Positions 4,439 through 59,312 of a stretch of 64,000 nucleotides of DNA are shown in pieces. Location: NCBI GenBank assembly GCA_045630985.1, contig JAZQTW010000015.1:10706-74705 (forward strand), written 5' to 3'. A model generated the notes under the pieces. The model was given only the letters and a program-made list of their open reading frames with translations, did no database searches and was not told where the DNA came from. Both the position numbers and the translations under genes were made by a program. The stretch comes from Alphaproteobacteria bacterium (GTDB lineage Bacteria > Pseudomonadota > Alphaproteobacteria > RF32 > CAG-239). Numbering within the stretch: the stretch's first letter is position 1; each line of letters begins with the position of its first letter.

Positions 4439-5494
4439 TTAAAATCCTAAATCTTCCATAAAACTAAATTGGTTGTTATCATTTTTAAATTTACTAACTC
4501 CAAGATATTTACATCCTTGTTCTGATAAAACACGTCCACGCGGTGTTCTTTGTAAAAATCCTAGTTTTAGTAAATATGGTTCAATTACTTCTTCTATTGT
4601 ATCTCGTTCTTCTGAAAGAGCTGCTGCCAGTGTATCAGCTCCAACAGGACCACCACCATAGTTTTTAGCGATACAATTTAGGTAACGGCGGTCAAATTCA
4701 TCTAAACCATAAGGGTCTACATCTAATAGGCTTAGTGCTTTATCTGCTATTGTAGAATCTATTTGTACGTTACCTGCAACAGCACCGAAGTCCCTTACTC
4801 TTTTTAATAATCTTCCTGCAATACGAGGGGTTCCGCGTGAACGCTTAGCAATTTCCATTGCGCCATCTTGAGATATTGGCATGTTTAATAAATTTGCACC
4901 GCGTAGAACTATTTTTTGTAAGTCTTCATGATTATAAAAATCCATGCGTAGAGGAATACCAAAACGTTCTCTTAGAGGTGTTGAAACAAGACCTGAGCGA
5001 GTTGTTGCACCAACAAGAGTAAAAGGTTGTAAATCTATTTTTACTGAACGAGCAGAAGGTCCTTCACCGATAATTATATCTAATTGAAAGTCTTCCATGG
5101 CAGAATATAAAACTTCTTCTATGGCAGGGTTTAAGCGGTGTATTTCATCTATAAATAAAACATCTTTTGCTTCAAGATTTGTTAATATGGCGGCCAAATC
5201 TCCAGATTTGGTAATCATTGGGGCAGAGGTTGCTTTAAATCCTACACCTAACTCTTTTGAGATAATGTTTGATAGAGTTGTTTTACCTAATCCTGGAGGG
5301 CCATATAAAAGTACGTGGTCTAAAACTTCTCCTCTACTTTTAGCAGATTCTATAAATACTTTTAGATTTTGGCATACTTTATCTTGGCCAACAAATTCAT
5401 CAAGACTAGATGGTCTGAGATTTATAGCAATAGGAGAGTTATTTTCATCTGTTGATAGTATTTGTGAGCTAACTATTCTTTCTTTATTTTCCAT
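4439..5494 (-). CDS. ruvB: Holliday junction branch-migration helicase RuvB
   Basis: [12 protein letters not shown], Walker [10 protein letters not shown], Walker [10 protein letters not shown], sensor and winged-helix regions conserved. Confidence 0.95.
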
Positions 5495-44587: not shown

Positions 44588-44664
44588 CGGAATGTAGTTC
44601 AGCCTGGTAGAGCGCTTGCATGGGGTGCAAGAAGTCGGAGGTTCGAATCCTCTCATTCCGACCA
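44588..44664 (+). tRNA. tRNA-Pro (anticodon GGG)
   Basis: CGGAATG acceptor, AGCCTGGTAGAGC D-arm, anticodon loop ATGGGGT (G37), GGAGGTTCGAATCCTCT T-arm, CATTCCG-A-CCA. Confidence 0.85.
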
Positions 44665-44668
44665 TAAA

Positions 44669-44700
44669 AAAGTCCTACCCTTGTGGTAGGATTTTTTTAT
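44669..44700 (+). terminator. intrinsic terminator after tRNA-Pro
   Basis: TCCTACC-cttgt-GGTAGGA + TTTTTTTAT. Confidence 0.75.
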
Positions 44701-44941: not shown

Positions 44942-45586
44942 ATGAAGGATATCATCCACACCGAACGGTTGTATTTAACCCCATTAAATAAAAAGGATGT
45001 CGCGCGCTATGTCCAAATCGCAAAAAATATGCGCATTGCCAAGGAGAAAAATCCCAGCTATTTTTTATACACGCGATTTGATTACAATTCAGCAAAAAGT
45101 GATGCTGATTTGACAGAGGCTGCCATGGGGCTTTTAACAAGTGCAGAAAAATCAATATTTCCAGAAACTACAAAACGTTTGAATATTTGTTTGAAAAATG
45201 GGTATATTATAGGTTATATTGGTTTTTTTCATAATCCTGATCAGAAAATTAGCAGTGATTTGGGCATTTTTTTAGACCCAAATTATGAGCATAAAGGATA
45301 TGCATTTGAAGCCCAGAAAAACTTATTGGCTTATTATTTTCTAAATTATGATGATAAAATTTACCTAACAATTTATCCTAAAAATTTGCCCTCATATCAA
45401 TTAAACACAAAATGTGGTGCTGTAAAAATTGACTATAGTGAAACATCGAAATACGGCTCGGAAAGAGATATCTTGGTCATTACTCGGAAAAAATTTATTG
45501 AAACAGTTTTTCAGAAAAAATTTACAACGCCAGAAAAAGAAAAACAATTTTTACTAGATTACTTAAAAATCTATAACAGAATTTAA
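44942..45586 (+). CDS. GNAT-family N-acetyltransferase (RimJ/RimL-like, Acetyltransf_3-type)
   Basis: TERLYLTPLNKKD N-terminal motif of RimL-like GNATs, acetyl-CoA region …GYIGF…DLGIFLDPNYEHKGYAFEA; GGAG RBS. Confidence 0.7.
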   Translation: MKDIIHTERLYLTPLNKKDVARYVQIAKNMRIAKEKNPSYFLYTRFDYNSAKSDADLTEAAMGLLTSAEKSIFPETTKRLNICLKNGYIIGYIGFFHNPDQKISSDLGIFLDPNYEHKGYAFEAQKNLLAYYFLNYDDKIYLTIYPKNLPSYQLNTKCGAVKIDYSETSKYGSERDILVITRKKFIETVFQKKFTTPEKEKQFLLDYLKIYNRI

Positions 45587-45649: not shown

Positions 45650-45669
45650 CTCATTCCGACCATAAAAAA
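45650..45669 (+). repeat. direct repeat copy C of tRNA-Pro 3' end plus 3' flank (20/20 nt)
   Basis: CTCATTCCGACCATAAAAAA identical to 44652-44671. Confidence 0.85.
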
Positions 45670-45670
45670 A

Positions 45671-45697: not shown

Positions 45698-45734
45698 TAT
45701 ATTTAACAAGTAACTTTAGCTAATAAAACCAAAA

Positions 45735-45770
45735 GGCTTGGATTTCTCCAAGCCTTTTGGTTTACATAAA
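45735..45770 (-). terminator. intrinsic terminator of the 416-aa gene
   Basis: AAACCAAAAGGCTTGGA-tttct-CCAAGCCTTTTGGTTT long perfect hairpin. Confidence 0.7.
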
Positions 45771-47021
45771 TTATCCTTCTTCGGTTTTACTTTCCAATAT
45801 CTTAAAACCATTTGATATTTCCAGTAATGTAGTCAGCGAAAAATCAGATGTTTTTAATTTTCTTATATCGGAGTAAAGCTTCTCATAATCTCTCTGTACC
45901 GTAGAAATCTTTTTTGAAGTTAGTGAACATTTTTCTACAATCTCGCCCAATTGTGCTTCATAAACCTCTCTATCCTGTGCTATTGCTTTTATCCCAACCT
46001 CATGAGATCTTACCACCATATCATCCCACAGTGGCAAAAATTCCGTACGAAGTATAGAATCCCACTTTTTACAATACCTGTCCTGATAAACATCTTTTAA
46101 TCTATCGCACATCAACCTCTGTATTGAAGTTGACATTAAAGACAAGGTGTGTTGGATACTATTCAAAGCATTAGACATATTAACGGCCAATTTTTCTACA
46201 GCTTCAGCAATAGGAACGGTTAGCTCCAAAACATTATCTGTATAAAATACTGGGAATATAGGATTATGAATATACAACTCATGATGACCTGTTTTGGGTT
46301 TTATCCGACCCGTATCAAAAATTTCTGAATCATCTACTCTTTTAATATTAAAAAAATAGAAATCTTCACAATCATAATCCTCACTCAAAATTTTAGCAAT
46401 TTTTGAATTTGCTTCCTCGTGTGTATCAAAAATAAAACAAGCAAAATAACTACCATAAGGACCATGCATACAATGATTGTTTTTATCAATCATATTATGT
46501 AACAGACTATAAGGATCATAAAGATTTTGTGCAGTAATTCCCATGCTCTTCATGTAGTCTTTTAAGCGGTAGCTACAACACTCTCGTCCTCTGCAATAGT
46601 GATATTTTAAAACCTTGGGTTGTCCGTATATACCATAATAGATTTGCTCATTAAGTTTGAAAAATGAAGGAAATTCTTCAAAAGATTCAACCATACATTT
46701 ATCATGCTCAACAAAACACTCATTAAGAATATCAAAATAAATGTCTTTCCAGATAATTTTCTCTCTCAAATCTTTCATGGTGACACGAACATATTCACTC
46801 TTGCTCTTCTCACCATAATTAACTTGTTTAGGCAACTTATATACTCTGAATTTATATACCATGTTATAGCCATGATTATTTTGCATAAGTATTGGCTGCT
46901 TGAGATTTTTATACCACAGTTTACCAAAAACAAAATGGTACATATTCCACCCATCTTTTTTGCATAAAGAATTTATGAATCTGTACATAAATTCCGGATT
47001 AAGATATTCTTCTCTAACCAT
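45771..47021 (-). CDS. hypothetical protein, 416 aa, Cys/His/Tyr-rich N-half, no recognised domain
   Basis: long ORF; no Shine-Dalgarno; conserved ~100-nt upstream leader shared with the 338-aa gene at 53434..54450. Confidence 0.5.
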   Translation of the reverse strand: MVREEYLNPEFMYRFINSLCKKDGWNMYHFVFGKLWYKNLKQPILMQNNHGYNMVYKFRVYKLPKQVNYGEKSKSEYVRVTMKDLREKIIWKDIYFDILNECFVEHDKCMVESFEEFPSFFKLNEQIYYGIYGQPKVLKYHYCRGRECCSYRLKDYMKSMGITAQNLYDPYSLLHNMIDKNNHCMHGPYGSYFACFIFDTHEEANSKIAKILSEDYDCEDFYFFNIKRVDDSEIFDTGRIKPKTGHHELYIHNPIFPVFYTDNVLELTVPIAEAVEKLAVNMSNALNSIQHTLSLMSTSIQRLMCDRLKDVYQDRYCKKWDSILRTEFLPLWDDMVVRSHEVGIKAIAQDREVYEAQLGEIVEKCSLTSKKISTVQRDYEKLYSDIRKLKTSDFSLTTLLEISNGFKILESKTEEG

Positions 47022-47050
47022 AATAGATAATATTTAAATAGTTTAACATC

Positions 47051-47120
47051 ATAATTTTTAATAGTGGGCAGATGATAATCTATTTTATTATAAAAATCAA
47101 ATGTTTTTATGTCTAATTTT
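47051..47120 (-). promoter_or_regulatory. conserved promoter/5' leader copy 1 (gene-sense: AAAATTAGACATAAAAACATTTGATTTTT … CCACTATTAAAAATTA)
   Basis: box ATAATTTTTAATAGTGG (47051-67) and AAAAATCAAATGTTTTTATGTCTAATTTT (47093-47120) both repeated at 54484-54557; gene-sense -35 TTGATT, 17 nt, -10 TATCAT. Confidence 0.55.
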
Positions 47121-47181
47121 CGGAAAATTGTTGTTTTCTGATTTGTCACTATTTTTTTAAGATATAAAAGTCAAGTTATAG

Positions 47182-47246
47182 CCTAGTGGTCGGTGTATTG
47201 TATTGAAAAACAATAAAAAAATTATTACCACACCTAGTGGGCGGTG
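47182..47246. repeat. two copies of CCTAGTGG(T/G)CGGTG 51 nt apart in a 400-bp non-coding region
   Basis: 47182-47195 and 47233-47246; locally GC-rich in an AT-rich spacer. Confidence 0.5.
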
Positions 47247-47379
47247 AACAAAAGCCAACCTCACCATTGTGGATGAGAAGGTTTGCCAACGTTAAAATAA
47301 CACTTTGTAAAATAATAAAAAAATTGCCTTATCAAAAACAAGGTATTTTTTTCTAATTTAGAGTGGGGGAACGCGACCA

Positions 47380-47426
47380 TTGTAAAAAAAAAAGAGGAAG
47401 AATTTTCTTCCTCTTTTTTTATTGTT
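47380..47426. terminator. bidirectional intrinsic terminator
   Basis: A10-GAGGAAGA-att-TTCTTCCTC-T9. Confidence 0.75.
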
Positions 47427-47428
47427 TT

Positions 47429-48064
47429 TTAGAAACCTATTACTTTTTTAGCTGCTTTTAAGTAGTTGGTATTTGGCATTTTATCTATACCTAAAGCTTC
47501 AACAGCGGTTTTCATCTTTGTGTAGTCTTCACTTTCACAACAAGCTGTTTCTACTAAAGCGCCATTCATCCAAACATAAGCATATTCGCAAATTACATCA
47601 TTTACAGAAAATCCATAGCGTTTCTTTTCTACTGTAACTAGAGCTAATTGATGATGGTTGCGTGCAAGCTCACAGAACTCTTCAAAAGAATATTCGTCTT
47701 TATCTAAGTCTAACTCTACTTTGAGGTGAGAAAGAATTGTTGCTAACTCTTCTTTTTTTACAGGGAAATTGAATTTTCCTCTAGGTTGGAAAATTTCATA
47801 TCCTTCTGGTGTTTCGCCAACTTTTGTTTTGATATCTAATAAATCATCGCGCACTTTTACGTTTGCTTCATCAGTCTTTTTAGATAAAATATATGTTTCT
47901 GCAGGCATTACACGTGCTTTATATAATACTGCTTTGCAGTTCCACATATTTTCTTTAACACCTTCTATAATATCTTTACCAAAAACTCTAAATTCGGCGC
48001 GAGGTGTTAATTTGGCAGCTTCGTCTGCTGATTGAGCTACATTTTTTGCAAAAACGTCTGTCAT
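47429..48064 (-). CDS. hypothetical protein, 211 aa (possibly a divergent CYTH-like domain), last gene of patatin-CYTH operon
   Basis: 24-nt gap to upstream CYTH gene; weak CYTH-like strand pattern (EFRVFGKD… VKVRDD… DIKTKVGE…) but lacks ExExK. Confidence 0.5.
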   Translation of the reverse strand: MTDVFAKNVAQSADEAAKLTPRAEFRVFGKDIIEGVKENMWNCKAVLYKARVMPAETYILSKKTDEANVKVRDDLLDIKTKVGETPEGYEIFQPRGKFNFPVKKEELATILSHLKVELDLDKDEYSFEEFCELARNHHQLALVTVEKKRYGFSVNDVICEYAYVWMNGALVETACCESEDYTKMKTAVEALGIDKMPNTNYLKAAKKVIGF

Positions 48065-48088
48065 TTTGTTTCTCCAATTATTTGATGA

Positions 48089-48559
48089 CTAGTTATTCCA
48101 TGTTGTATATGGATTTTTTACTAAGTTAGAGTTGAAGTAACGAGGGTCTCCAGATACTTCTTCGCCAATCCATTCTGGTTTTTCAAATTTTTGGTCTTCG
48201 CTTTGAAGCTCAACTTCTGCAACAATCAAACCTTTGTTAACTCCTAAAAACTCATCAATTTCCCAAACCAATCCGTCTAGAGCAATTTTGTAACGTATTT
48301 TTTCTACAATTGGTTGTTCTGCAAGGTTTGTAAGCATTTCAACACATTCATTGTGTGGAATTTCATATTCAAATTCCATACGAGTTATACCAACTGTTGG
48401 GCCTTTAATTGTCATGAAAGCTTTATCATTTATGGTGCGAATACGAACAGTACGTTCTTTTGCACTATTAAGGTATCCTTGACGATAATGTGTTCCTTGT
48501 GCTAAAGAACGCCAGCTGTCATCAATTACTAAAAATTTACGTTCAATTTCTTTTGACAT
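48089..48559 (-). CDS. CYTH-domain protein (triphosphate tunnel metalloenzyme; class IV adenylyl cyclase / inorganic triphosphatase family)
   Basis: N-terminal EIERKFLV (ExExK signature), acidic strand motifs EFEYEI, EIDEF, VAEVEL. Confidence 0.75.
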   Translation of the reverse strand: MSKEIERKFLVIDDSWRSLAQGTHYRQGYLNSAKERTVRIRTINDKAFMTIKGPTVGITRMEFEYEIPHNECVEMLTNLAEQPIVEKIRYKIALDGLVWEIDEFLGVNKGLIVAEVELQSEDQKFEKPEWIGEEVSGDPRYFNSNLVKNPYTTWNN

Positions 48560-48625
48560 TGTCTTCTCCTTGTAAATAAAACACGCTATTGTTTATATCA
48601 CACTGGGAGGAATAAGCAATATTTT

Positions 48626-49486
48626 TTATTGATTTGTGATTTGTGCTAAAAATTGTTTAACTTTATCTAGCATGTTTGTAGCATCTTGTCGACCTAGTTC
48701 GTACATTTCTTTAACTATATCAAGGTTTGGTTCCATTTTTGAAATATTTATAAATTTACTTGGGCGAATTAAGAGGATTTCTTCTTTTTGAGCTAATTTT
48801 TCTATTTCTTCTATCTCGTTATTGTACATTGTGTGGCGATTAAGTATTGTTTTGATGAAGTTTGGGTATTTTCTATAGATTAAATTTGCTAGCCACTTTG
48901 CCTTAAATGGCTTTTTGCGATATCCTTCAGGACGAGTTGCTATTACTATATTTTTTGTAAAACCTAAGGTTTTTGCGCCTTGTAGAGGTATACTATCGCA
49001 AATGCCTCCGTCTAAATATTTGTTGTTATTTAAATTTACTATTTGAGAGACAAATGGCATAGATGCTGATGCTCGCAAATAATCAATTTCTTTAAACAAG
49101 TCTTTACAGTGGATATATTCGGGCTTACCAGTTTCTATGTTAGATACAACTACGTAAAACTTGGTATTAGAATCCATAAATGTTTTGTTATCAAATGGGT
49201 CTAATTTTTCTGGTAAATCATGGTAGCAAAATTTTGTATCTACAATATTTCCGGTTAAGAGTAGAGAGCGAAAGCTCATAAAACGATAGTCATTTCCGTA
49301 TTTCATGTTATAACGGATGCTACGTTCTTTTTGTTTTGCCACATATGAACAACCATGTATTGCGCCTGCAGAAACGCCAATTACTCCGTCAAAGGTTATT
49401 CCGTTTTCTAAAAAAACATCTAGTACACCTGCGGTGTAGATACCTCTTTTTGCTCCACCTTCTAAAACTAATCCTGTTTTTTGCAT
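48626..49486 (-). CDS. patatin-like phospholipase
   Basis: oxyanion-hole LVLEGGAKRG, nucleophile elbow GVSAG, catalytic DGG (YLDGGICDS). Confidence 0.85.
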   Translation of the reverse strand: MQKTGLVLEGGAKRGIYTAGVLDVFLENGITFDGVIGVSAGAIHGCSYVAKQKERSIRYNMKYGNDYRFMSFRSLLLTGNIVDTKFCYHDLPEKLDPFDNKTFMDSNTKFYVVVSNIETGKPEYIHCKDLFKEIDYLRASASMPFVSQIVNLNNNKYLDGGICDSIPLQGAKTLGFTKNIVIATRPEGYRKKPFKAKWLANLIYRKYPNFIKTILNRHTMYNNEIEEIEKLAQKEEILLIRPSKFINISKMEPNLDIVKEMYELGRQDATNMLDKVKQFLAQITNQ

Positions 49487-49584
49487 ATTATCTATCCTTG
49501 TTTCTGTAAATTATTTGGAAAATTAGAACAAAACCCCAATATGGTCAATATAATAATCTATTTTTTAGTATGTATGTTATAAAT

Positions 49585-49613
49585 TTGACAAAGGGTGTTT
49601 TTTGTGATATACT
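49585..49613 (+). promoter_or_regulatory. sigma70-type promoter, copy 1 of conserved 27-nt core TTTGACAAAGGGTGTTTTTTGTGATAT
   Basis: -35 TTGACA (49585-90), 17-nt spacer, extended -10 TGaTATACT (49608-13). Confidence 0.65.
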
Positions 49614-49639
49614 GTATAAATATTGAAGGAGATAAGGGG

Positions 49640-49726
49640 ATGGAAAATGTATTAAATAATATGTGTAAAAGATTTGAGAATACCTTGAAAGTGGCGGTTT
49701 TCTACACACACACACACACACACACT
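49640..49726 (+). CDS. 28-codon leader ORF (MENVLNNMCKRFENTLKVAVFYTHTHTH*) containing (AC)10
   Basis: AGGAG RBS 8 nt upstream of ATG 49640; TAA immediately after the dinucleotide repeat; located between promoter and terminator. Confidence 0.35.
49704..49723 (+). repeat. (AC)10 dinucleotide microsatellite inside the leader ORF
   Basis: acacacacacacacacacac, only such tract in the window. Confidence 0.95.
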
Positions 49727-49756
49727 AACAAACCCTGCCGAGAAAATTTTTAACTA

Positions 49757-49797
49757 AGACCTCAAAGGTAACGAATTCCTTTGAGGTTTTGTTATTT
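49757..49797 (+). terminator. intrinsic terminator / attenuator 22 nt upstream of the 623-aa gene RBS
   Basis: ACCTCAAAGG-taacgaatt-CCTTTGAGGT (10-bp stem) + TTTTGTTATTT. Confidence 0.75.
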
Positions 49798-49818
49798 AAA
49801 ATATAAGGGAGACAAGAA

Positions 49819-51690
49819 ATGGATGGAGCTTTGTTAAAAGATATTTTTGAGAGGAGTTATGCTAATGAGTTAGTAGAATGTATTCGCTCAAATGGTAATG
49901 TAGATGATTTTATAAAAAATTTAGAAGAAAAACAAAGTGATGAACAACAATCTAAAATATATCAGTTTGTGGAGTATTATAAAAAGGTTTTAGAATATCC
50001 AAGTGATATTTCTAAAGAAGAAATATTGAAATCTGGTCTAAGTGAACAATATATTGAACGACAAATTATGGAAAGTAAATTTCCGGGTGAAGCTTTTAGG
50101 TCTATTAGAAGAATGTATGAGCAATTAGATAGACCGGCAGCTCCAATGGTTGCATTTAGGAGAGAGTATGCGGGGGGAGATATTGTTGAAAAATTAAAAC
50201 AAAAAGGTTTTGATGTTGCTACAGAAGATGATGAGAGGGCTGTTAATACAGATGTTTTTGTTGTAGATAAGCAATCTAGGACAATAAATGCTCCATTTTT
50301 AGCTCCGGATGAAGCATTGAAGGCTAATATAGCTATGATAGATGCTATTTATGAATGTGGATCTGAAGCATATTTATCTAGTCCAAGAACTAGAGAAACA
50401 TTTGCTATTGCAACTCATGAGCCTTTGTCTCAAGAAGAAGGAGTTGGATTAGATTTAGAAATAATAGCTTCTCATTATTCAAAAGATAATTATGAGAGGG
50501 TTATGAATAATTTTTATCAAGAATGTATAGAGGGAGAAGAACCGTACAAGATATTATGCAATTTTATAGATCACATAAAACCAAGGGATTTAGACCTACA
50601 TGATAAAATTATCAAAGAAGGAAAAGAAAGGTTTCCACGTTATTTATCCAGTGATTTATTAAAAGAAATAGAAGAAGAAGCTAGAAAAATTTTAGTAGAG
50701 CATAAAGAGGAGTTTATGCCTTATGTAAAATATGTGTATCAATATATGATGAAAGAAGAAGCATTTGAAAAAGGGATTGATTCGCATATTCCAGATAAGG
50801 AAAATATAGAAATGCTAGAACAAAATAAACCGATAACATCAGTTTTTCATGGAGGGAAAAAAGGTGGATTACCATATTCAATATTTGCTCGTAGGAAGGA
50901 AAAAAATATGATTCATACTTATGCGGCATCTATGATGGATTATGAAGTATATTCGGGAGGGAGTACTTCAAATAATCCTGTTGGGTATGCGGTTGCAGCT
51001 TCCTGTCATAATGCAAGGTCATTTGCGATATCTTTTGGTTTTGTTTATGAATATAAGTCTAGAGGAGAAAATCAGGAGATGTTGCTCTTGGATAGTGGTA
51101 GTAAACCATTTGATGGGGGAAAGTTTGTTGCCCCATACTCTGATGAAACAGCTGTGTATCCGCATCAAAATAAATTAAAAAAAATATATATTGCAACAAA
51201 GAGAGATGGGGTTTTTAGAGTTCTTCCATTAGAGGTAGATGAAGAAGGTAAAGTTAAAGATGCAAGATGGCGAGAATTTGTTGAATTGCATAACCCGGTG
51301 GATGATACATTATCTGGATTTATGGTTGATAGACAGAATAATATGATTGCGGAATATGATAAGTTAGGCAAAGAAAAGATGATGGATAGACGCTTAAGCA
51401 TTGATATTGGTGCAAAAAATATTTCTTTACCAATAAATTCGGAAAATGAAAGTGTAGAAAAAGTTGAAAGTTTATCTGCTGTATCTTCTGTATCAGTAGC
51501 AGAGATGTCTGAGAAGGAGAAGTATGTTTTCTTTAAAGCGCTTAGTAGAGGGGAGAATATGTTTCTTAATAAACATGAAGAAGCACAACAATTGGTTAAA
51601 AATGAGGAACAAACTAAAGTTACTTCTTTACAAAAAACGAAAGATTGTCAAAGAGTGATAGTTAATAGTAGAGATAAGGATAGAGATTAA
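49819..51690 (+). CDS. hypothetical protein, 623 aa, acidic, no recognised domain (candidate secreted effector)
   Basis: AAGGGAG RBS 7 nt upstream; long ORF with coding-like composition. Confidence 0.55.
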   Translation: MDGALLKDIFERSYANELVECIRSNGNVDDFIKNLEEKQSDEQQSKIYQFVEYYKKVLEYPSDISKEEILKSGLSEQYIERQIMESKFPGEAFRSIRRMYEQLDRPAAPMVAFRREYAGGDIVEKLKQKGFDVATEDDERAVNTDVFVVDKQSRTINAPFLAPDEALKANIAMIDAIYECGSEAYLSSPRTRETFAIATHEPLSQEEGVGLDLEIIASHYSKDNYERVMNNFYQECIEGEEPYKILCNFIDHIKPRDLDLHDKIIKEGKERFPRYLSSDLLKEIEEEARKILVEHKEEFMPYVKYVYQYMMKEEAFEKGIDSHIPDKENIEMLEQNKPITSVFHGGKKGGLPYSIFARRKEKNMIHTYAASMMDYEVYSGGSTSNNPVGYAVAASCHNARSFAISFGFVYEYKSRGENQEMLLLDSGSKPFDGGKFVAPYSDETAVYPHQNKLKKIYIATKRDGVFRVLPLEVDEEGKVKDARWREFVELHNPVDDTLSGFMVDRQNNMIAEYDKLGKEKMMDRRLSIDIGAKNISLPINSENESVEKVESLSAVSSVSVAEMSEKEKYVFFKALSRGENMFLNKHEEAQQLVKNEEQTKVTSLQKTKDCQRVIVNSRDKDRD

Positions 51691-51736
51691 TTTTATTTAT
51701 ACAATGTAGATGTTTTATATAAATATATGTATGTGT

Positions 51737-51765
51737 TTGACAAAGGGTGTTTTTTGTGATATGTT
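51737..51765 (+). promoter_or_regulatory. sigma70-type promoter, copy 2 of the conserved 27-nt core
   Basis: -35 TTGACA (51737-42), identical 17-nt spacer AAGGGTGTTTTTTGTGA, -10 TATGTT. Confidence 0.6.
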
Positions 51766-51797
51766 ATACGTATATTGTAAATTAAGGGAGGATTGAT

Positions 51798-52349
51798 ATG
51801 GTAAATGTAGCGCCTATAATTGCGGCGACAGCGGCAATGAATGCAGCATCAGCGGCTTTGAATGCAAAAAGAGTTTTAAATAAAGGTAAAAGAGTTCCAA
51901 CTGAAGAAGAAATAAAGAAAAACCAAGAGTATAAGGATAATGAAAAGGCTTTGAGTGAGGATTATGCAAAAGCTTATAAGAGAGCAAGGGCTAGTGTTGA
52001 TGAGAGTAAGACTGTTGTTGAATCACAAGATAGAATGGAAAAAGTTACTGCATATTATGATGATAAAGGAAATCTTTTAATACGTGAAACAGCATTGACT
52101 TTTATGATTGATGGAGAAACAACAACAGAAATTTATTCTCCTTACTCAGGTAAAAAGTTGTTTAGTAATAGAGTTTATCATAGTCCTGAAGAGGATATTG
52201 AGCATATTACTCATTATGATAGTGAAGGTAATGATGATACTCAGATGTATGCTAAAAAGAAGAAGCTTGAAGCTAAAAGAGATAAAGAAAAAGCAAAGAA
52301 GAGACTTAGAAGGATGAAACTTAATAGAGTCTTTCATAAAGGGAGATAA
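51798..52349 (+). CDS. hypothetical lysine-rich protein, 183 aa
   Basis: AAGGGAGG RBS 6 nt upstream; Ala-rich N-terminus (MVNVAPIIAATAAMNAASAAL), basic C-terminus. Confidence 0.5.
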   Translation: MVNVAPIIAATAAMNAASAALNAKRVLNKGKRVPTEEEIKKNQEYKDNEKALSEDYAKAYKRARASVDESKTVVESQDRMEKVTAYYDDKGNLLIRETALTFMIDGETTTEIYSPYSGKKLFSNRVYHSPEEDIEHITHYDSEGNDDTQMYAKKKKLEAKRDKEKAKKRLRRMKLNRVFHKGR

Positions 52350-52417
52350 AATAAATTGCATATAATGAAAAAACGGCATTTGTTATGCCGTTTTTTCATT
52401 GTGTTGAATTGGAAGAT

Positions 52418-52867
52418 TTATCGCTTTCCATAAACAATGATGTATTGATTATCACCTTTGTCAGCTAAAAGATATCCTACTTTATATCCTAGCTTGAAAG
52501 CGTTTTCACCATGATACCCATAGTTAGTAATCTTCCAACTTGTTGGGGTGTTTATGTATGTATGTACATTAAAACCTATGGAATTAAATTCGTAATATGT
52601 GTTTTTTGAATTTATTCCATAACTTCCGTTTGGAGTTATGTACATATCATGATAATCACCATCCTCTAGATAATTGCTATCGGAATTTTGCATAAATGCA
52701 TATACAAAATCCGCATCTTTTACAGCCTCTACTGAGGGTTGAGCATCACAGTATTCCTTTGTAGAATAGCATTCGCCATCTAAAAGGATGTTACCATCGC
52801 ATACTATTTGTGCGAAGGTAGTTGTACTAGTGAGAACTAGTAGCAAAGAAATAAAAATCTGTTTCAT
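52418..52867 (-). CDS. small secreted protein with signal peptide, Tyr/Asn/Gly-rich
   Basis: MKQIFISLLLVLTSTTTFA|QI signal peptide; 4 Cys near N-terminus. Confidence 0.5.
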   Translation of the reverse strand: MKQIFISLLLVLTSTTTFAQIVCDGNILLDGECYSTKEYCDAQPSVEAVKDADFVYAFMQNSDSNYLEDGDYHDMYITPNGSYGINSKNTYYEFNSIGFNVHTYINTPTSWKITNYGYHGENAFKLGYKVGYLLADKGDNQYIIVYGKR

Positions 52868-52970
52868 AAAAAATAATATTTGGTTATTAGATTTGTTTAT
52901 ATCACATTTTTAAGATTGTTGCAATAGTTTTTTGTACAAAAAAACCACCCAGTAAGGGTGGTGGTGTTAG

Positions 52971-53288
52971 CTATTCTTCTTTAAATGCTTTTATTAGGCT
53001 TGATAAAGCGATAATTAGACCTATAAAGAAGAAAATGCAGAAAATTATTAGAGATGTTGGTGTTGATACCCATGCTAGGTATATTGCAAAAGCTATTATG
53101 TAGTAGATAATAAAGTACATACAGCGCAAAATTATTTGTTTGTACTGGATTACCTCATTGGGAGTTGCTTTTGTAGTACATAGGCGAATGCGCCTTTTTT
53201 CCCATCTTCTAAGGAAATAGATGAAGCATAAGCAAAAAAGTATCAAGCTTATAGCCCATACATACAGAACAATTCTTGTTACTTCCAT
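52971..53288 (-). CDS. small membrane protein (3 TM)
   Basis: hydrophobic segments; weak. Confidence 0.3.
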   Translation of the reverse strand: MEVTRIVLYVWAISLILFCLCFIYFLRRWEKRRIRLCTTKATPNEVIQYKQIILRCMYFIIYYIIAFAIYLAWVSTPTSLIIFCIFFFIGLIIALSSLIKAFKEE

Positions 53289-53433
53289 AATGAATAATAA
53301 TTTATAGTGATTAATAATATCTGATTAATGTATAAGATTGGCTGAATTATATAAATGATGCGAATATTGTCAATACGATTGTTGATATAGAAAAAGCCAC
53401 TATGATAGTGGCTTTTAAGTTAGAAAAAATTTG

Positions 53434-54450
53434 CTAAAGTTCTTCCCATTTGATTTTTTTAGGGAACTGCTTGAACCAGTGTTCTTCGGTTATTTCAGGC
53501 ATTTTCAGTTCCAATGTTTGATAAACCATCTTTACCTTGTCAACCCTGTTTACCGGAACGATTCCAGAAGCATTTTTAATGCCGGATTTTTTTAGCAATG
53601 CAACTCGTTCTGATGTATCTGCACGGTGAGTATACCTGAATTCATGTCGCATAGTGATATCCAGACCTTCCAATCGCATATACTCCATGACATCGTATAT
53701 ATACATAGGCAGATAATCTTTTACTTGGCCGGATTTTGGAATTTGTGTGTAACGTCCTATTTGTCCTTTATCAATTTCATATAAAGGATAACGCCAGTAT
53801 TCATTATCATTACCATGATCGATCATAGGTTCTTTAGGTAGATCGTCCACACAAACCGTATATTCTCCCTTTGGAAGTCGGTCAATTTCAGCTCCAAACA
53901 GCAACTCATGGCTTGTGCGTTTCTCAAGTGAATAGTTCTTACAATTCCATAGTTTTGGCAGAGCAAGCATGTGATGAGGGTATGGGTATACCTGAAAATC
54001 TATAAAATAAAGAATGCGGTAATCTGTGATGAACATCATCTTCGGTCTTTCTGCGAATTTGTCGTCATTAGGATAAACTAGCAACACGTTGTTTACACAG
54101 GTTGCTATGATAAATTCTTTTACGTAATCTATCATCACCCTAATACTTTCGTTGTATTTGTCCTTAGAAAAATACGGCGTCCATGGGTTGTCAGGAAGAA
54201 GTGATTTCACATTTTCATAAGAAAAGTCAATCACCCAAACAGGACCGCCGGTTCTATGGCTTCCCCAAGTGCTGCTGTTGACAACAGTAAGGATAATTTC
54301 TTCCCATTCCTTGTTTCTCAATACTGCAAAATGGTGCTTGACCGGTTCGTTAAGCCAAGAGATGAACTCTTGTTCGGTGTCAAAGCAAGCTCGGGCTTCT
54401 TCAACACTGTCGATAATAATTTTCCTGATTTCTTCTTCTGTTTTTTTCAT
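53434..54450 (-). CDS. hypothetical protein, 338 aa, no recognised domain
   Basis: long ORF, no SD, upstream leader conserved with the 416-aa gene. Confidence 0.5.
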   Translation of the reverse strand: MKKTEEEIRKIIIDSVEEARACFDTEQEFISWLNEPVKHHFAVLRNKEWEEIILTVVNSSTWGSHRTGGPVWVIDFSYENVKSLLPDNPWTPYFSKDKYNESIRVMIDYVKEFIIATCVNNVLLVYPNDDKFAERPKMMFITDYRILYFIDFQVYPYPHHMLALPKLWNCKNYSLEKRTSHELLFGAEIDRLPKGEYTVCVDDLPKEPMIDHGNDNEYWRYPLYEIDKGQIGRYTQIPKSGQVKDYLPMYIYDVMEYMRLEGLDITMRHEFRYTHRADTSERVALLKKSGIKNASGIVPVNRVDKVKMVYQTLELKMPEITEEHWFKQFPKKIKWEEL

Positions 54451-54483
54451 AATAAGAATATTTAGAATAATTAATTAAACATT

Positions 54484-54557
54484 GTAATTTTTAATAGTGG
54501 AGTGAGTTTAATTCTTTTTAATTTAAAAATCAAATATTTTTTATGTCTAATTTTTTG
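54484..54557 (-). promoter_or_regulatory. conserved promoter/5' leader copy 2
   Basis: GTAATTTTTAATAGTGG (54484-54500) and AAAAATCAAATATTTTTTATGTCTAATTTTTT (54526-54557); gene-sense -35 TTGATT, 17 nt, -10 TAAACT. Confidence 0.55.
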
Positions 54558-54650: not shown

Positions 54651-55067
54651 CTACTCGGTGTATACGAATATTTTTCCATCTATCATCTTCTGATTCTTTT
54701 TTAGTTTTACGATTATAGAAGGAAGAACCAAGAGGATAATGAAGAGTACTGCAAGCATAGGAATAAGTGTTTTCATAGTAGATATTCCATATGCAACATT
54801 TAACCAAATAGAAATGAAAAGGTAGGCACAAGCCATTAAACCGCCGAATATTGATGCTTTTGCCAAAGACCATAAGGTTTTTTGATTTGTGATAAAAGCT
54901 TCAGCATGTTCTTTGCTTGGGGCAAAAATGACGCCTTTTACTTTGTTACCCAGTGTGTCATAAGAAAATGGTAAAGCTTCTTTGAAGCCAACATCTTCCG
55001 GCTTTTTACCTTCGTTGTAATGAGAGAAAAAAATGGTAGCTCTCTCTGTCATTGTTAGCATGTCCAT
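54651..55067 (-). CDS. hypothetical membrane protein (138 aa, 2 C-terminal TM helices)
   Basis: ORF with terminator downstream. Confidence 0.45.
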   Translation of the reverse strand: MDMLTMTERATIFFSHYNEGKKPEDVGFKEALPFSYDTLGNKVKGVIFAPSKEHAEAFITNQKTLWSLAKASIFGGLMACAYLFISIWLNVAYGISTMKTLIPMLAVLFIILLVLPSIIVKLKKNQKMIDGKIFVYTE

Positions 55068-58904: not shown

Positions 58905-59147
58905 TTACTTTTCTTGGCGCTTTTCCTTTTCTTCAGCAAAAAATTCATATTCAAATGATTTTTTTATAGAGAAACCTTTTTCTAGCTCGTCAAATAAGAG
59001 TTTGATTTGAGCATCAAGCTCTTCTGCAGACATTGTTTCTACTTTTGATGTTAGTTCTTTTTCCCATTTGCGCTCGACAAGAGCAAGACAAAAGTTTGCA
59101 ACACAAACAAGAACAACAATGCTGATGATGATTGTAAAAGCAAGCAT
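58905..59147 (-). CDS. small membrane-anchored protein with acidic tail
   Basis: single N-terminal TM helix; weak. Confidence 0.35.
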   Translation of the reverse strand: MLAFTIIISIVVLVCVANFCLALVERKWEKELTSKVETMSAEELDAQIKLLFDELEKGFSIKKSFEYEFFAEEKEKRQEK

Positions 59148-59312
59148 AATGATTATTATTTAATTGTGAGACATAATTATTTATTATTTGCAGGGCATAT
59201 TATAGTAATGTATTTATTTTTCAAGCTTTTTATGAAAATAAAGCTTGATTTTAAAATATTTGACATATATAATTTTTTTGTCAAATAAGCATATGTTTTA
59301 ATTTATATAGAT

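Follow-up and report, generated by a model that had tools for sequence, protein, structure and literature searches.

A predicted promoter and 5′ leader module without a Shine–Dalgarno sequence precedes unrelated accessory genes in uncultured gut Alphaproteobacteria

Introduction

Promoter sequences that recur in front of unrelated genes have been described in several bacterial systems. These systems form the background for the element treated here, a module consisting of a predicted promoter and 5′ leader, which lies directly upstream of two minus-strand genes encoding proteins of 416 and 338 aa. Both genes are located in a 64,000-nt stretch of contig JAZQTW010000015.1 from an Alphaproteobacteria bacterium; this whole stretch is referred to as the window. 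The two upstream regions are probably copies of a clade-wide, multi-copy expression module, that is, a selected and recombining cassette for accessory genes whose translation would start independently of a Shine–Dalgarno (SD) sequence.

Published families of the so-called putative mobile promoters usually have two members each (Matus-Garcia, Nijveen & van Passel 2012, PMC3575422). They share with the present module the occurrence of similar upstream DNA before unrelated coding sequences, the presence of several copies per genome, the spread across taxa, and the lack of insertion sequence or Rfam matches. However, the module is present in dozens of copies, comprises the whole 5′ untranslated region up to the start codon, has an SD-less start region, and forms arrays with conserved terminators. 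The closest resemblance is to the erp genes of Borrelia and their “upstream homology box”, in which one promoter, operator and leader has been joined by recombination to many coding sequences. The erp genes are co-expressed, and their shared promoter/operator is bound by BpaB, BpuR and EbfC (PMC10016077). In erp, conservation enters the signal peptide, the loci are carried on cp32 prophages, and the regulators are known, whereas conservation of the module stops exactly at the ATG, its loci are chromosomal, and no phage match was obtained.

Two further comparisons concern the organization of the genes and their start regions. The rAID-1 system (Ross et al. 2019; 10.1101/471110) and integrons likewise contain same-strand arrays of small, fast-evolving accessory genes with repetitive intergenic sequences. 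In contrast to them, no recombinase was found next to the arrays described here within the 8-kb loci, there is no attC-type structure, and each unit has a promoter of its own. As to translation, Baez et al. 2019 (PMC6847099) describe an A-rich motif at positions −11 to −14 that, together with A at −3, promotes initiation without an SD in Flavobacterium and E. coli. The module resembles this Kozak-like mode of initiation in the absence of an SD, in the A residues at −12, −13, −14 and −3, and in an unstructured AU-rich context. In Bacteroidia, however, this is a genome-wide habit with AUGs depleted near the starts, while here it concerns one accessory class in an SD-using genome, and upstream AUGs are kept.

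Compared with known promoter reuse, the new elements are the copy number, the species spread, the conservation ending at the start codon, and a complete SD-free start region in an SD-using genome. Most known cases of promoter reuse are sequence pairs to which no function has been assigned; here, 82–98% identity is maintained across species in which neutral sites are saturated. The same 85-nt core before many cargo genes amounts to a natural replicated experiment on leader nucleotides, SD-independent initiation, and start-codon choice, and it could show how accessory genes plug into a common expression or regulation circuit. The module is also a search handle for otherwise invisible small accessory proteins, often membrane-anchored, in an uncultured gut lineage, and it marks the variable regions in which accessory genes gather, two examples being the flank of tRNA-Pro and the neighbourhood of patatin.

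Similarity of the two upstream regions

A first-pass annotation of the window had described upstream regions that are similar at matching distances from two start codons, each containing a −35/−10 pair, lacking an SD, and followed by mutually unrelated proteins. All of these observations held on formal analysis. Alignment with MAFFT of positions 47022–47127 and 54451–54557 (both minus strand) gives approximately 80% identity across about 105 nt, with the exact blocks AAAATTAGACATAAAAA, ATTTGATTTTTA and CCACTATTAAAAATTA common to both regions and a similar ATG-proximal stretch. Each block occurs twice in the 64-kb window, with other matches found only at three mismatches, which is chance level. 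The pair was also recovered independently by a repeat finder (repeat D2). The local alignment score of the pair is 55. As a null set, all pairs of other 110-nt upstream regions from this AT-rich window were used (n = 1275), for which the mean score is 12 (standard deviation 3, maximum 24); shuffled sequences scored at most 30. Chance similarity and AT-rich composition are ruled out by these two controls.

The hexamers TTGATT and TATCAT, separated by 17 nt, were located upstream of the 416-aa gene by a promoter scan (47100–47072), and the corresponding TTGATT-17-TAAACT upstream of the 338-aa gene was read directly from the sequence (54533–54505). Neither gene has an SD, defined as GGAG, GAGG or AGGA no more than 20 nt from the ATG, compared with 31 of the 46 other ATG-start genes of the window. 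The two proteins show no relation to each other (best BLASTP E = 8.3). Together with the approximately 15 unrelated families found behind other copies, this agrees with the definition of putative mobile promoters, which asks for non-paralogous downstream coding sequences. In the interval from −150 to −50 used for that class, the pair reaches 87% identity over 47 nt, the defining values being at least 80% over at least 50 nt.

Distribution of the module and its cargo genes

Genes of the 416-aa family at growing evolutionary distance keep TTGAC, AAAAATTA, ATGTTAAAC and TTATTATG in their upstream regions. A search pattern was built from these conserved features, and one genome per species was scanned. 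The scan returned 24 loci (designated, like other loci outside the window, by L numbers). Genuine module copies are present in 21 of these loci, almost all belonging to gut “Alphaproteobacteria bacterium” metagenome-assembled genomes (MAGs), several of which gave two or three hits each, and the hits in Mycoplasma, Pelagibacteraceae and Nitrospina look like chance matches. A scan of JGI metagenomes contributed a single additional genuine copy (L040); its eight remaining hits were chance matches. With an nhmmer profile built from the copies, about 45 were detected in the fetched DNA, so the pair is not a private duplication. The long-form copy upstream of the 416-aa gene (copy A; 47022–47127, minus strand), which comprises an upstream block, the promoter and the 5′ leader, scores 98.8 bits (E = 6e-29), and the copy upstream of the 338-aa gene (copy B; 54451–54557, minus strand) scores 54.2 bits (E = 3e-15). 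Copy B is 98% identical in the orthologous locus L001.

Counted at species level, the module is found in 12 or more gut “Alphaproteobacteria bacterium” MAGs, and it precedes approximately 15 unrelated gene families. The earlier proposal that the promoter or leader, rather than the genes, had been duplicated or recruited is supported and extended by this distribution. The cargo proteins range from 45 to 418 aa, and many carry an N-terminal membrane helix. No significant Pfam or PHROG match was found for the cargo families, the lone PHROG match (E = 0.002) being to a family of unknown function. A hint of immunity function, a Tis1_ImmP match at E = 0.04, lies below significance, and no immunity-family hit passes the threshold. 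The 3′ edge of the module is always a start codon, and its orientation is always towards the gene. Same-strand tandem arrays of modules are present in L016, L017, L019, L024, L028 and L031.

A phage or plasmid origin was considered and rejected: the module pattern has no hits in IMG/VR, blastn against phage and plasmid collections returned no match, and no PHROG hit is significant.

Two of the loci deserve separate mention. L018 (JAZNJG010000200.1) is labelled as a “Bacilli bacterium” MAG, yet it contains the module and a 416-family gene of the alphaproteobacterial clade; this contig is probably mis-binned. The three-unit array of MAG SIG59 (L016) adjoins a gene for an AbiEii toxin and a gene with a SocA/Panacea antitoxin domain (L016 4203–7150), a neighbourhood that suggests a defence or accessory island.

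Exchange of genes behind the module

In the window, the unit extending from 47127 to 45656 consists of the module, the 416-aa gene (45771–47021, minus strand), and a terminator hairpin formed by a 17-bp perfect inverted repeat (I6; 45726–45763, minus strand), which is kept in L022, L006 and L008. The entire unit is 96.7% identical in L022, where the upstream flanks are unrelated and homology with copy A begins at 47127. In the arrays, the intergenic unit is wholly conserved and consists of the terminator CCCCTCACAA…TTGTGAGGGG, a spacer, and the module. The spacer between the terminator hairpin and the next module is itself conserved and measures 150–170 nt. The same hairpin, CCCCTCACAA-TTTTATTG-TTGTGAGGGG, closes cassette units in different species (L016 2401–2450, 3270–3319 and 3973–4022; L017 4146–4192 and 5069–5115; L024 ~4510–4540).

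In the 8-kb loci of other species, nothing can be aligned with the window except the module, at 82–98% identity. The 416-family protein of L018 shares 37% identity with that of the window, with four-fold degenerate sites saturated (52%), while the core module retains 87%; for L006, the corresponding values are 81% at four-fold sites and 94% in the module. These comparisons point to a module under strong constraint or frequent homogenisation. In the very close L022, the relation is reversed, with the module (92%) less similar than the gene at four-fold sites (96%), which suggests a mosaic origin.

The nearest relative of a copy usually belongs to a different genome and heads a gene of a different family; the copy upstream of the 416-aa gene, for instance, is 96% identical to an L017 copy ahead of a 114-aa gene. 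Module conservation tracks neither genome nor gene family. Moreover, different genes follow an identical upstream flank and module, both in the window and L006 (416 and 418 aa) versus L020 (64 aa), and in L017 (133 aa), L034 (45 aa) and L018 (394 aa). From these alignments, units with conserved ends appear to have been reshuffled by homologous recombination in variable regions. In the proposed mechanism, the module would head short, terminator-bounded accessory-gene units, occurring singly or in same-strand arrays in variable chromosome regions. Because both ends of the unit are conserved, the genes between them could be swapped by homologous recombination, and selection would keep the module near-constant.

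Two other explanations assign the mobility to the repeat itself. According to the first, the repeats are attC-like sites, and the arrays are integron- or rAID-like cassettes built by a tyrosine recombinase. Such a system would account for same-strand arrays of small unknown genes separated by conserved intergenic units of 100–300 nt, and rAID-1 arrays of gut Bacteroidales also have repetitive intergenic sequences (10.1101/471110). In addition, the module sequence GTTAAAC fits the attC core GTTRRRY, and the two variants of the leader part just after ATGTT. However, the single-stranded DNA folds without an attC-type hairpin (z-scores −0.7 and −1.5), GTTAAAC has no inverse core site (RYYYAAC) to pair with, and many copies read GTTTAAT, which breaks the core consensus. 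No integrase or recombinase was found in the window region, nor next to the arrays within the 8-kb loci, where the flanking genes encode flgE, GtrA, NUDIX-GNAT, AbiEii, ABC-F, TolB, S9 and TPR proteins. Each unit also has its own promoter and terminator, and conservation continues to the ATG. With no hairpin, no recombinase in these loci, and no immunity-family hit past the threshold, identity with integron attC sites or rAID-1 is disfavoured and extremely unlikely.

The second explanation treats the module as a Correia- or MITE-like miniature transposable element that carries an outward-facing promoter and has inserted before many genes. The multi-copy state, the sharp homology boundaries, such as the one at 47127 in the L022 unit, and the fit to the class of putative mobile promoters (PMC3575422) would be expected of such an element, but no terminal inverted repeats or target-site duplications were found around the units, and the module forms no hairpin. 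The constant start codon at the 3′ edge, the constant orientation, between-genome homology blocks that span gene and terminator rather than the module alone, and the absence of matches in phage or plasmid collections also argue against it, and insertion of this kind is very unlikely.

Promoter anatomy

Column conservation was calculated from 32 distinct module copies. The module has a core of about 85 nt and a long form of about 125 nt. The −35 hexamer, TTGAyT, retains TTGA in 31–32 of 32 copies and is followed by a T-run. In the −10 hexamer, the first T is present in 32, the A in 31 and the last T in 30 of 32 copies, and the middle positions vary, so that it reads TAnnnT. Copies with a deviating −10 still have a −10-like hexamer (TAATAT, TACCAT or TAACAT). 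The spacer between the two hexamers is fixed at 17 nt. An A located 7 nt past the −10 is present in 30 of 32 copies (alignment position A49) and is the predicted transcription start.

In copy A, these elements are TTGATT at 47095–47100, TATCAT at 47072–47077, and the predicted start A at 47065; in copy B, they are the −35 at 54528–54533, TAAACT at 54505–54510, and the predicted +1 at 54498 (all on the minus strand). Hexamers resembling −35 and −10 elements, spaced within the 16–18 nt characteristic of sigma-70-type promoters and forming the focus of conservation, make this assignment well supported by comparison. The −35/−10 pair proposed by the first-pass annotation is the one that the comparative data favour. 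In terms of mechanism, transcription is expected to begin at the conserved A of CCCACT from a sigma-70-type promoter, whose activity and strength are predicted from conservation. The box CCACTATT begins at the predicted +1 and therefore would be transcribed, as had been proposed for the conserved leader block.

An additional upstream block, TTTTCCGAAAATTAGACGTAAAAA (A-rich/TTAGAC), is present in approximately 60% of the copies and absent from the rest. In copy A, it corresponds to TTTTCCGAAAATTAGACATAAAAAC (47102–47127, minus strand), which contains the inverted repeat TTTTC-C-GAAAA. The block is situated at about −74 to −36 from the predicted transcription start, where an UP element or activator site would be expected. 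Its TAGACA would, in addition, serve as the −35 of a second, overlapping and near-consensus promoter, P1 (TAGACA-17-TATAAT, 11 of 12 matches). Copies without the block keep the downstream promoter, P2, and P2 is therefore taken as the universal promoter.

The consensus was also checked by eye for the CtrA box (TTAA-N7-TTAAC), GANTC methylation sites, the Bacteroidetes TAnnTTTG promoter motif, and ops (GGCGGTAG), none of which is present.

Leader and translation start region

The predicted leader is AU-rich and measures 44 nt in the 416-aa copy and 47 nt in the 338-aa copy. No SD is present in any module copy. Instead, A occupies positions −13, −12 and −3 of the start codon in all 32 copies. 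In copy A, the A-rich box TTTAAAT spans −17 to −11 (47032–47038, minus strand) and, together with the A at −3 (47024), is a candidate substitute for the SD. A T[TA]AAA[AT] box whose first base falls within −20 to −12 occurs in 26 of 34 module translation initiation regions, in all 10 junction regions described below, and in 6 of 46 core genes. Of the features expected of an SD-free, A-rich initiation region, the lack of an SD and the enrichment of A at −11 to −14 and −3 are found, while A at −6 and avoidance of AUGs near the start are not. Both the A-rich box and the A at −3 speak for an initiation region close to the start codon that works without an SD. Ribosomes would accordingly start on the main gene without SD pairing, via a UUAAAAA or UUUAAAU box near −13 and the A at −3.

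The junctions are SD-less intercistronic sequences, (A)AGTAAATAACCATTAAAAACTTTATGTT-ATG, found between unrelated genes inside module-led operons and sharing the TTAAAAA box with the module leader (L016 2070–2100 and 2900–2930; L017 5414–5440 and 5673–5700; L019 1501–1530; L020 7160–7190; L024 4871–4900). The downstream cistrons of these operons are diverse, and several are homologous to genes that stand first elsewhere.

Searches for RNA structure were negative. RNAalifold places no consensus pairs over the 32 copies, and Rfam gives no hit at the gathering threshold in the window and none at E up to 1 across 46950–47350. A riboswitch or known cis-regulatory RNA was rejected on these grounds. 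A local inverted repeat, AAATAGATTATCATC…GATGTTAAACTATTT, was also discarded as an RNA structure: it is lost in leader variant 2 with no compensatory change.

Several observations weigh against a selected, SD-independent cassette. At −6, where A is the favourable base, T is present in 29 of 32 copies. Upstream AUGs, which tend to be avoided in systems without an SD, are conserved here. In local folding energy, the surroundings of the start codon do not differ from those of SD-bearing genes (p = 0.4), and lack of local structure was dropped as a special trait of the module start regions. In the L008 orthologue of the 416-aa gene, the promoter part has been replaced altogether, so the gene does not strictly require the module. 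Recent horizontal spread, instead of selection, could also lie behind the near-identity across species. Finally, a plain promoter with an AU-rich leader fails to account for the most invariant part of the leader, AAAAATTAyrATGTT, located 25–40 nt upstream of the start, in which the contained ATG is invariant.

This leader box corresponds in copy A to ATTAAAAATTATGATGTT (47045–47062, minus strand), with the upstream AUG at 47047–47049, and in copy B to CCACTATTAAAAATTA (54485–54500), with the upstream AUG at 54480–54482. The segments AAAAATTA and ATGT are conserved in 30–32 of 32 copies, so that the box is more conserved than the −10 element. It is also kept where the promoter has drifted, namely in L009, in L023 and in a probable third, diverged copy in the window (59148–59204, minus strand). 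This third copy was detected by a leader-only nhmmer search (E = 0.09) and aligns with the leader variant of the L031 93-aa gene. Its likeness is limited to the leader (…ATTATGTCTCACAATTAAATAATAATCATT-ATG), the promoter part being different, and its upstream open reading frame (uORF), MSHN*, is the same mini-ORF as in the L031 variant. It is followed by an 80-aa ORF with an N-terminal transmembrane helix and no SD (58905–59147, minus strand).

The excess conservation of the box, as well as its retention in the drifted copies, would be explained if it were the binding site of a trans-acting regulator, either a DNA repressor at +5 to +22 or an RNA-binding protein or small RNA. The module-led genes would then constitute one regulon switched together, an addition to the promoter and leader function rather than a replacement for it. 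The closest analogue, the Borrelia erp genes, has a shared operator and co-expression (PMC10016077). Nevertheless, the box lacks dyad symmetry, the DNA sampled contains no sequence complementary to it outside the modules, the arrays are not accompanied by a regulator gene, and Rfam gives no match. Such a regulator is possible but somewhat doubtful.

The conserved upstream AUG allows another explanation. Every copy contains a uORF of 3–45 codons, M(M)(L/F/S)N…, which stops 11–20 nt before the main AUG (mostly 11–14) or overlaps it. Ribosomes may load at the invariant upstream AUG, translate this uORF, and then re-initiate at, or couple to, the SD-less main AUG. Consistent with this, the upstream AUG is present in 32 of 32 copies, is preceded at 5 nt by a UUAAAAA box of its own, and likewise has A at −3, its context (AAAAAUUAUGAUG) resembling that of the main start. 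In most copies, the third codon varies only between AAC and AAT, which is synonymous, and the greater conservation of the box compared with the −10 would be explained. On the other hand, the length varies from 3 to 45 codons, several uORFs extend 50–107 nt into the main ORF, a distance at which coupling would be inefficient, conservation of the peptide ends after 3–4 residues, and there is no SD or structure for uORF translation to open. Re-initiation or coupling is consequently an unlikely explanation.

A comparably small probability is assigned to a related idea, in which the leader box (UUAAAAAUUAUGAUGUU with the obligatory upstream AUG) and the UUAAAAA box of the junctions would form a dedicated non-SD signal for ribosome recruitment or translation control. 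If this were true, the module would define a translational regulon of shuffled accessory cassettes and a second, parallel initiation code beside the SD-using core genes.

RfaH-dependent operons combine a conserved leader element (JUMPstart/ops) with poor SDs. Purely by analogy, the leader box, which lies in the early transcribed region, might resemble ops in loading a specialised paralogue of NusG (as for RfaH or UpxY), coupling RNA polymerase to the ribosome for foreign, SD-poor genes. However, the box has no sequence similarity to ops, and the units are very short (0.2–1.5 kb) with strong terminators, so that anti-termination would not be needed. In the DNA sampled, the lone NusG is the housekeeping copy beside secE in L009, and no paralogue of it was found. 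This analogy is highly unlikely to hold.

The 416-aa and 338-aa proteins

Neither protein has a Pfam or NCBIfam family match. Their earlier description as orphans holds only in part, because homologues exist within the clade: 43 for the 416-aa protein and 7 for the 338-aa protein (gene at 53434–54450, minus strand). All of these homologues come from uncultured gut alphaproteobacterial MAGs, and none contains a Pfam domain. Assignment to the Alphaproteobacteria is supported by a GcrA gene in locus L008. The AlphaFold2 model of the 416-aa protein (mean predicted local distance difference test score, pLDDT, 77) consists of an alpha/beta N-terminal domain and a long C-terminal coiled coil, with no fold match below E = 0.3. 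For the 338-aa protein, the model is unusable (mean pLDDT 42).

Neighbourhood of the module in the window

The flank of the tRNA-Pro(GGG) gene (44588–44664, plus strand) is a recurrent landing place for module-led units. In L022, the unit directly abuts tRNA-Pro; in L020 and L024, tRNA-Pro is close by, and in L006 it is ~2.7 kb away. The last 13 nt of the tRNA gene followed by seven A residues (44652–44671, plus strand) are repeated 998 bp downstream (45650–45670), and this pair brackets a GNAT acetyltransferase gene (44942–45586). The repeats look like att-type direct repeats arising from insertion into the 3′ end of the tRNA gene. In L022, the 416-aa unit is located at the tRNA without the GNAT insert.

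Upstream of copy A, a non-coding flank of about 200 nt (47159–47361, minus strand), containing a terminator-like hairpin at 47259–47278, is kept in L006, L020 and L027; in L027, the aligned stretch has no module after it.

Three neighbouring minus-strand genes, encoding 149, 105 and 138 aa (52418–52867, 52971–53288 and 54651–55067), also lack an SD. Their leaders end in AU-rich sequence of the …ATTATT type, each with its own, different promoter, and their orthologues were found only in the close relative L001–L005.

On the plus strand, a 42-nt block (TTGACAAAGGGTGTTTTTTGTGATATACT…) is shared at 86% identity between 49584–49625 and 51736–51777. It provides TTGACA-17-TATACT or TATGTT with an extended TG and precedes unrelated 623-aa and 183-aa genes, both with strong SDs. 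Promoter sharing therefore recurs within the island. Within 49640–49790 (plus strand), a 37-aa ORF (MENVLNNMCKRFENTLKVAVFYTHTHTHTNKPCRENF*) with a good SD contains a perfect (AC)11 repeat at 49704–49725. Between this ORF and the 623-aa gene, immediately ahead of the latter, is a terminator-like hairpin (CCTCAAAGG…CCTTTGAGG with a T-run). The ORF and hairpin could act as a leader-peptide attenuator or as a slippage-prone phase switch.

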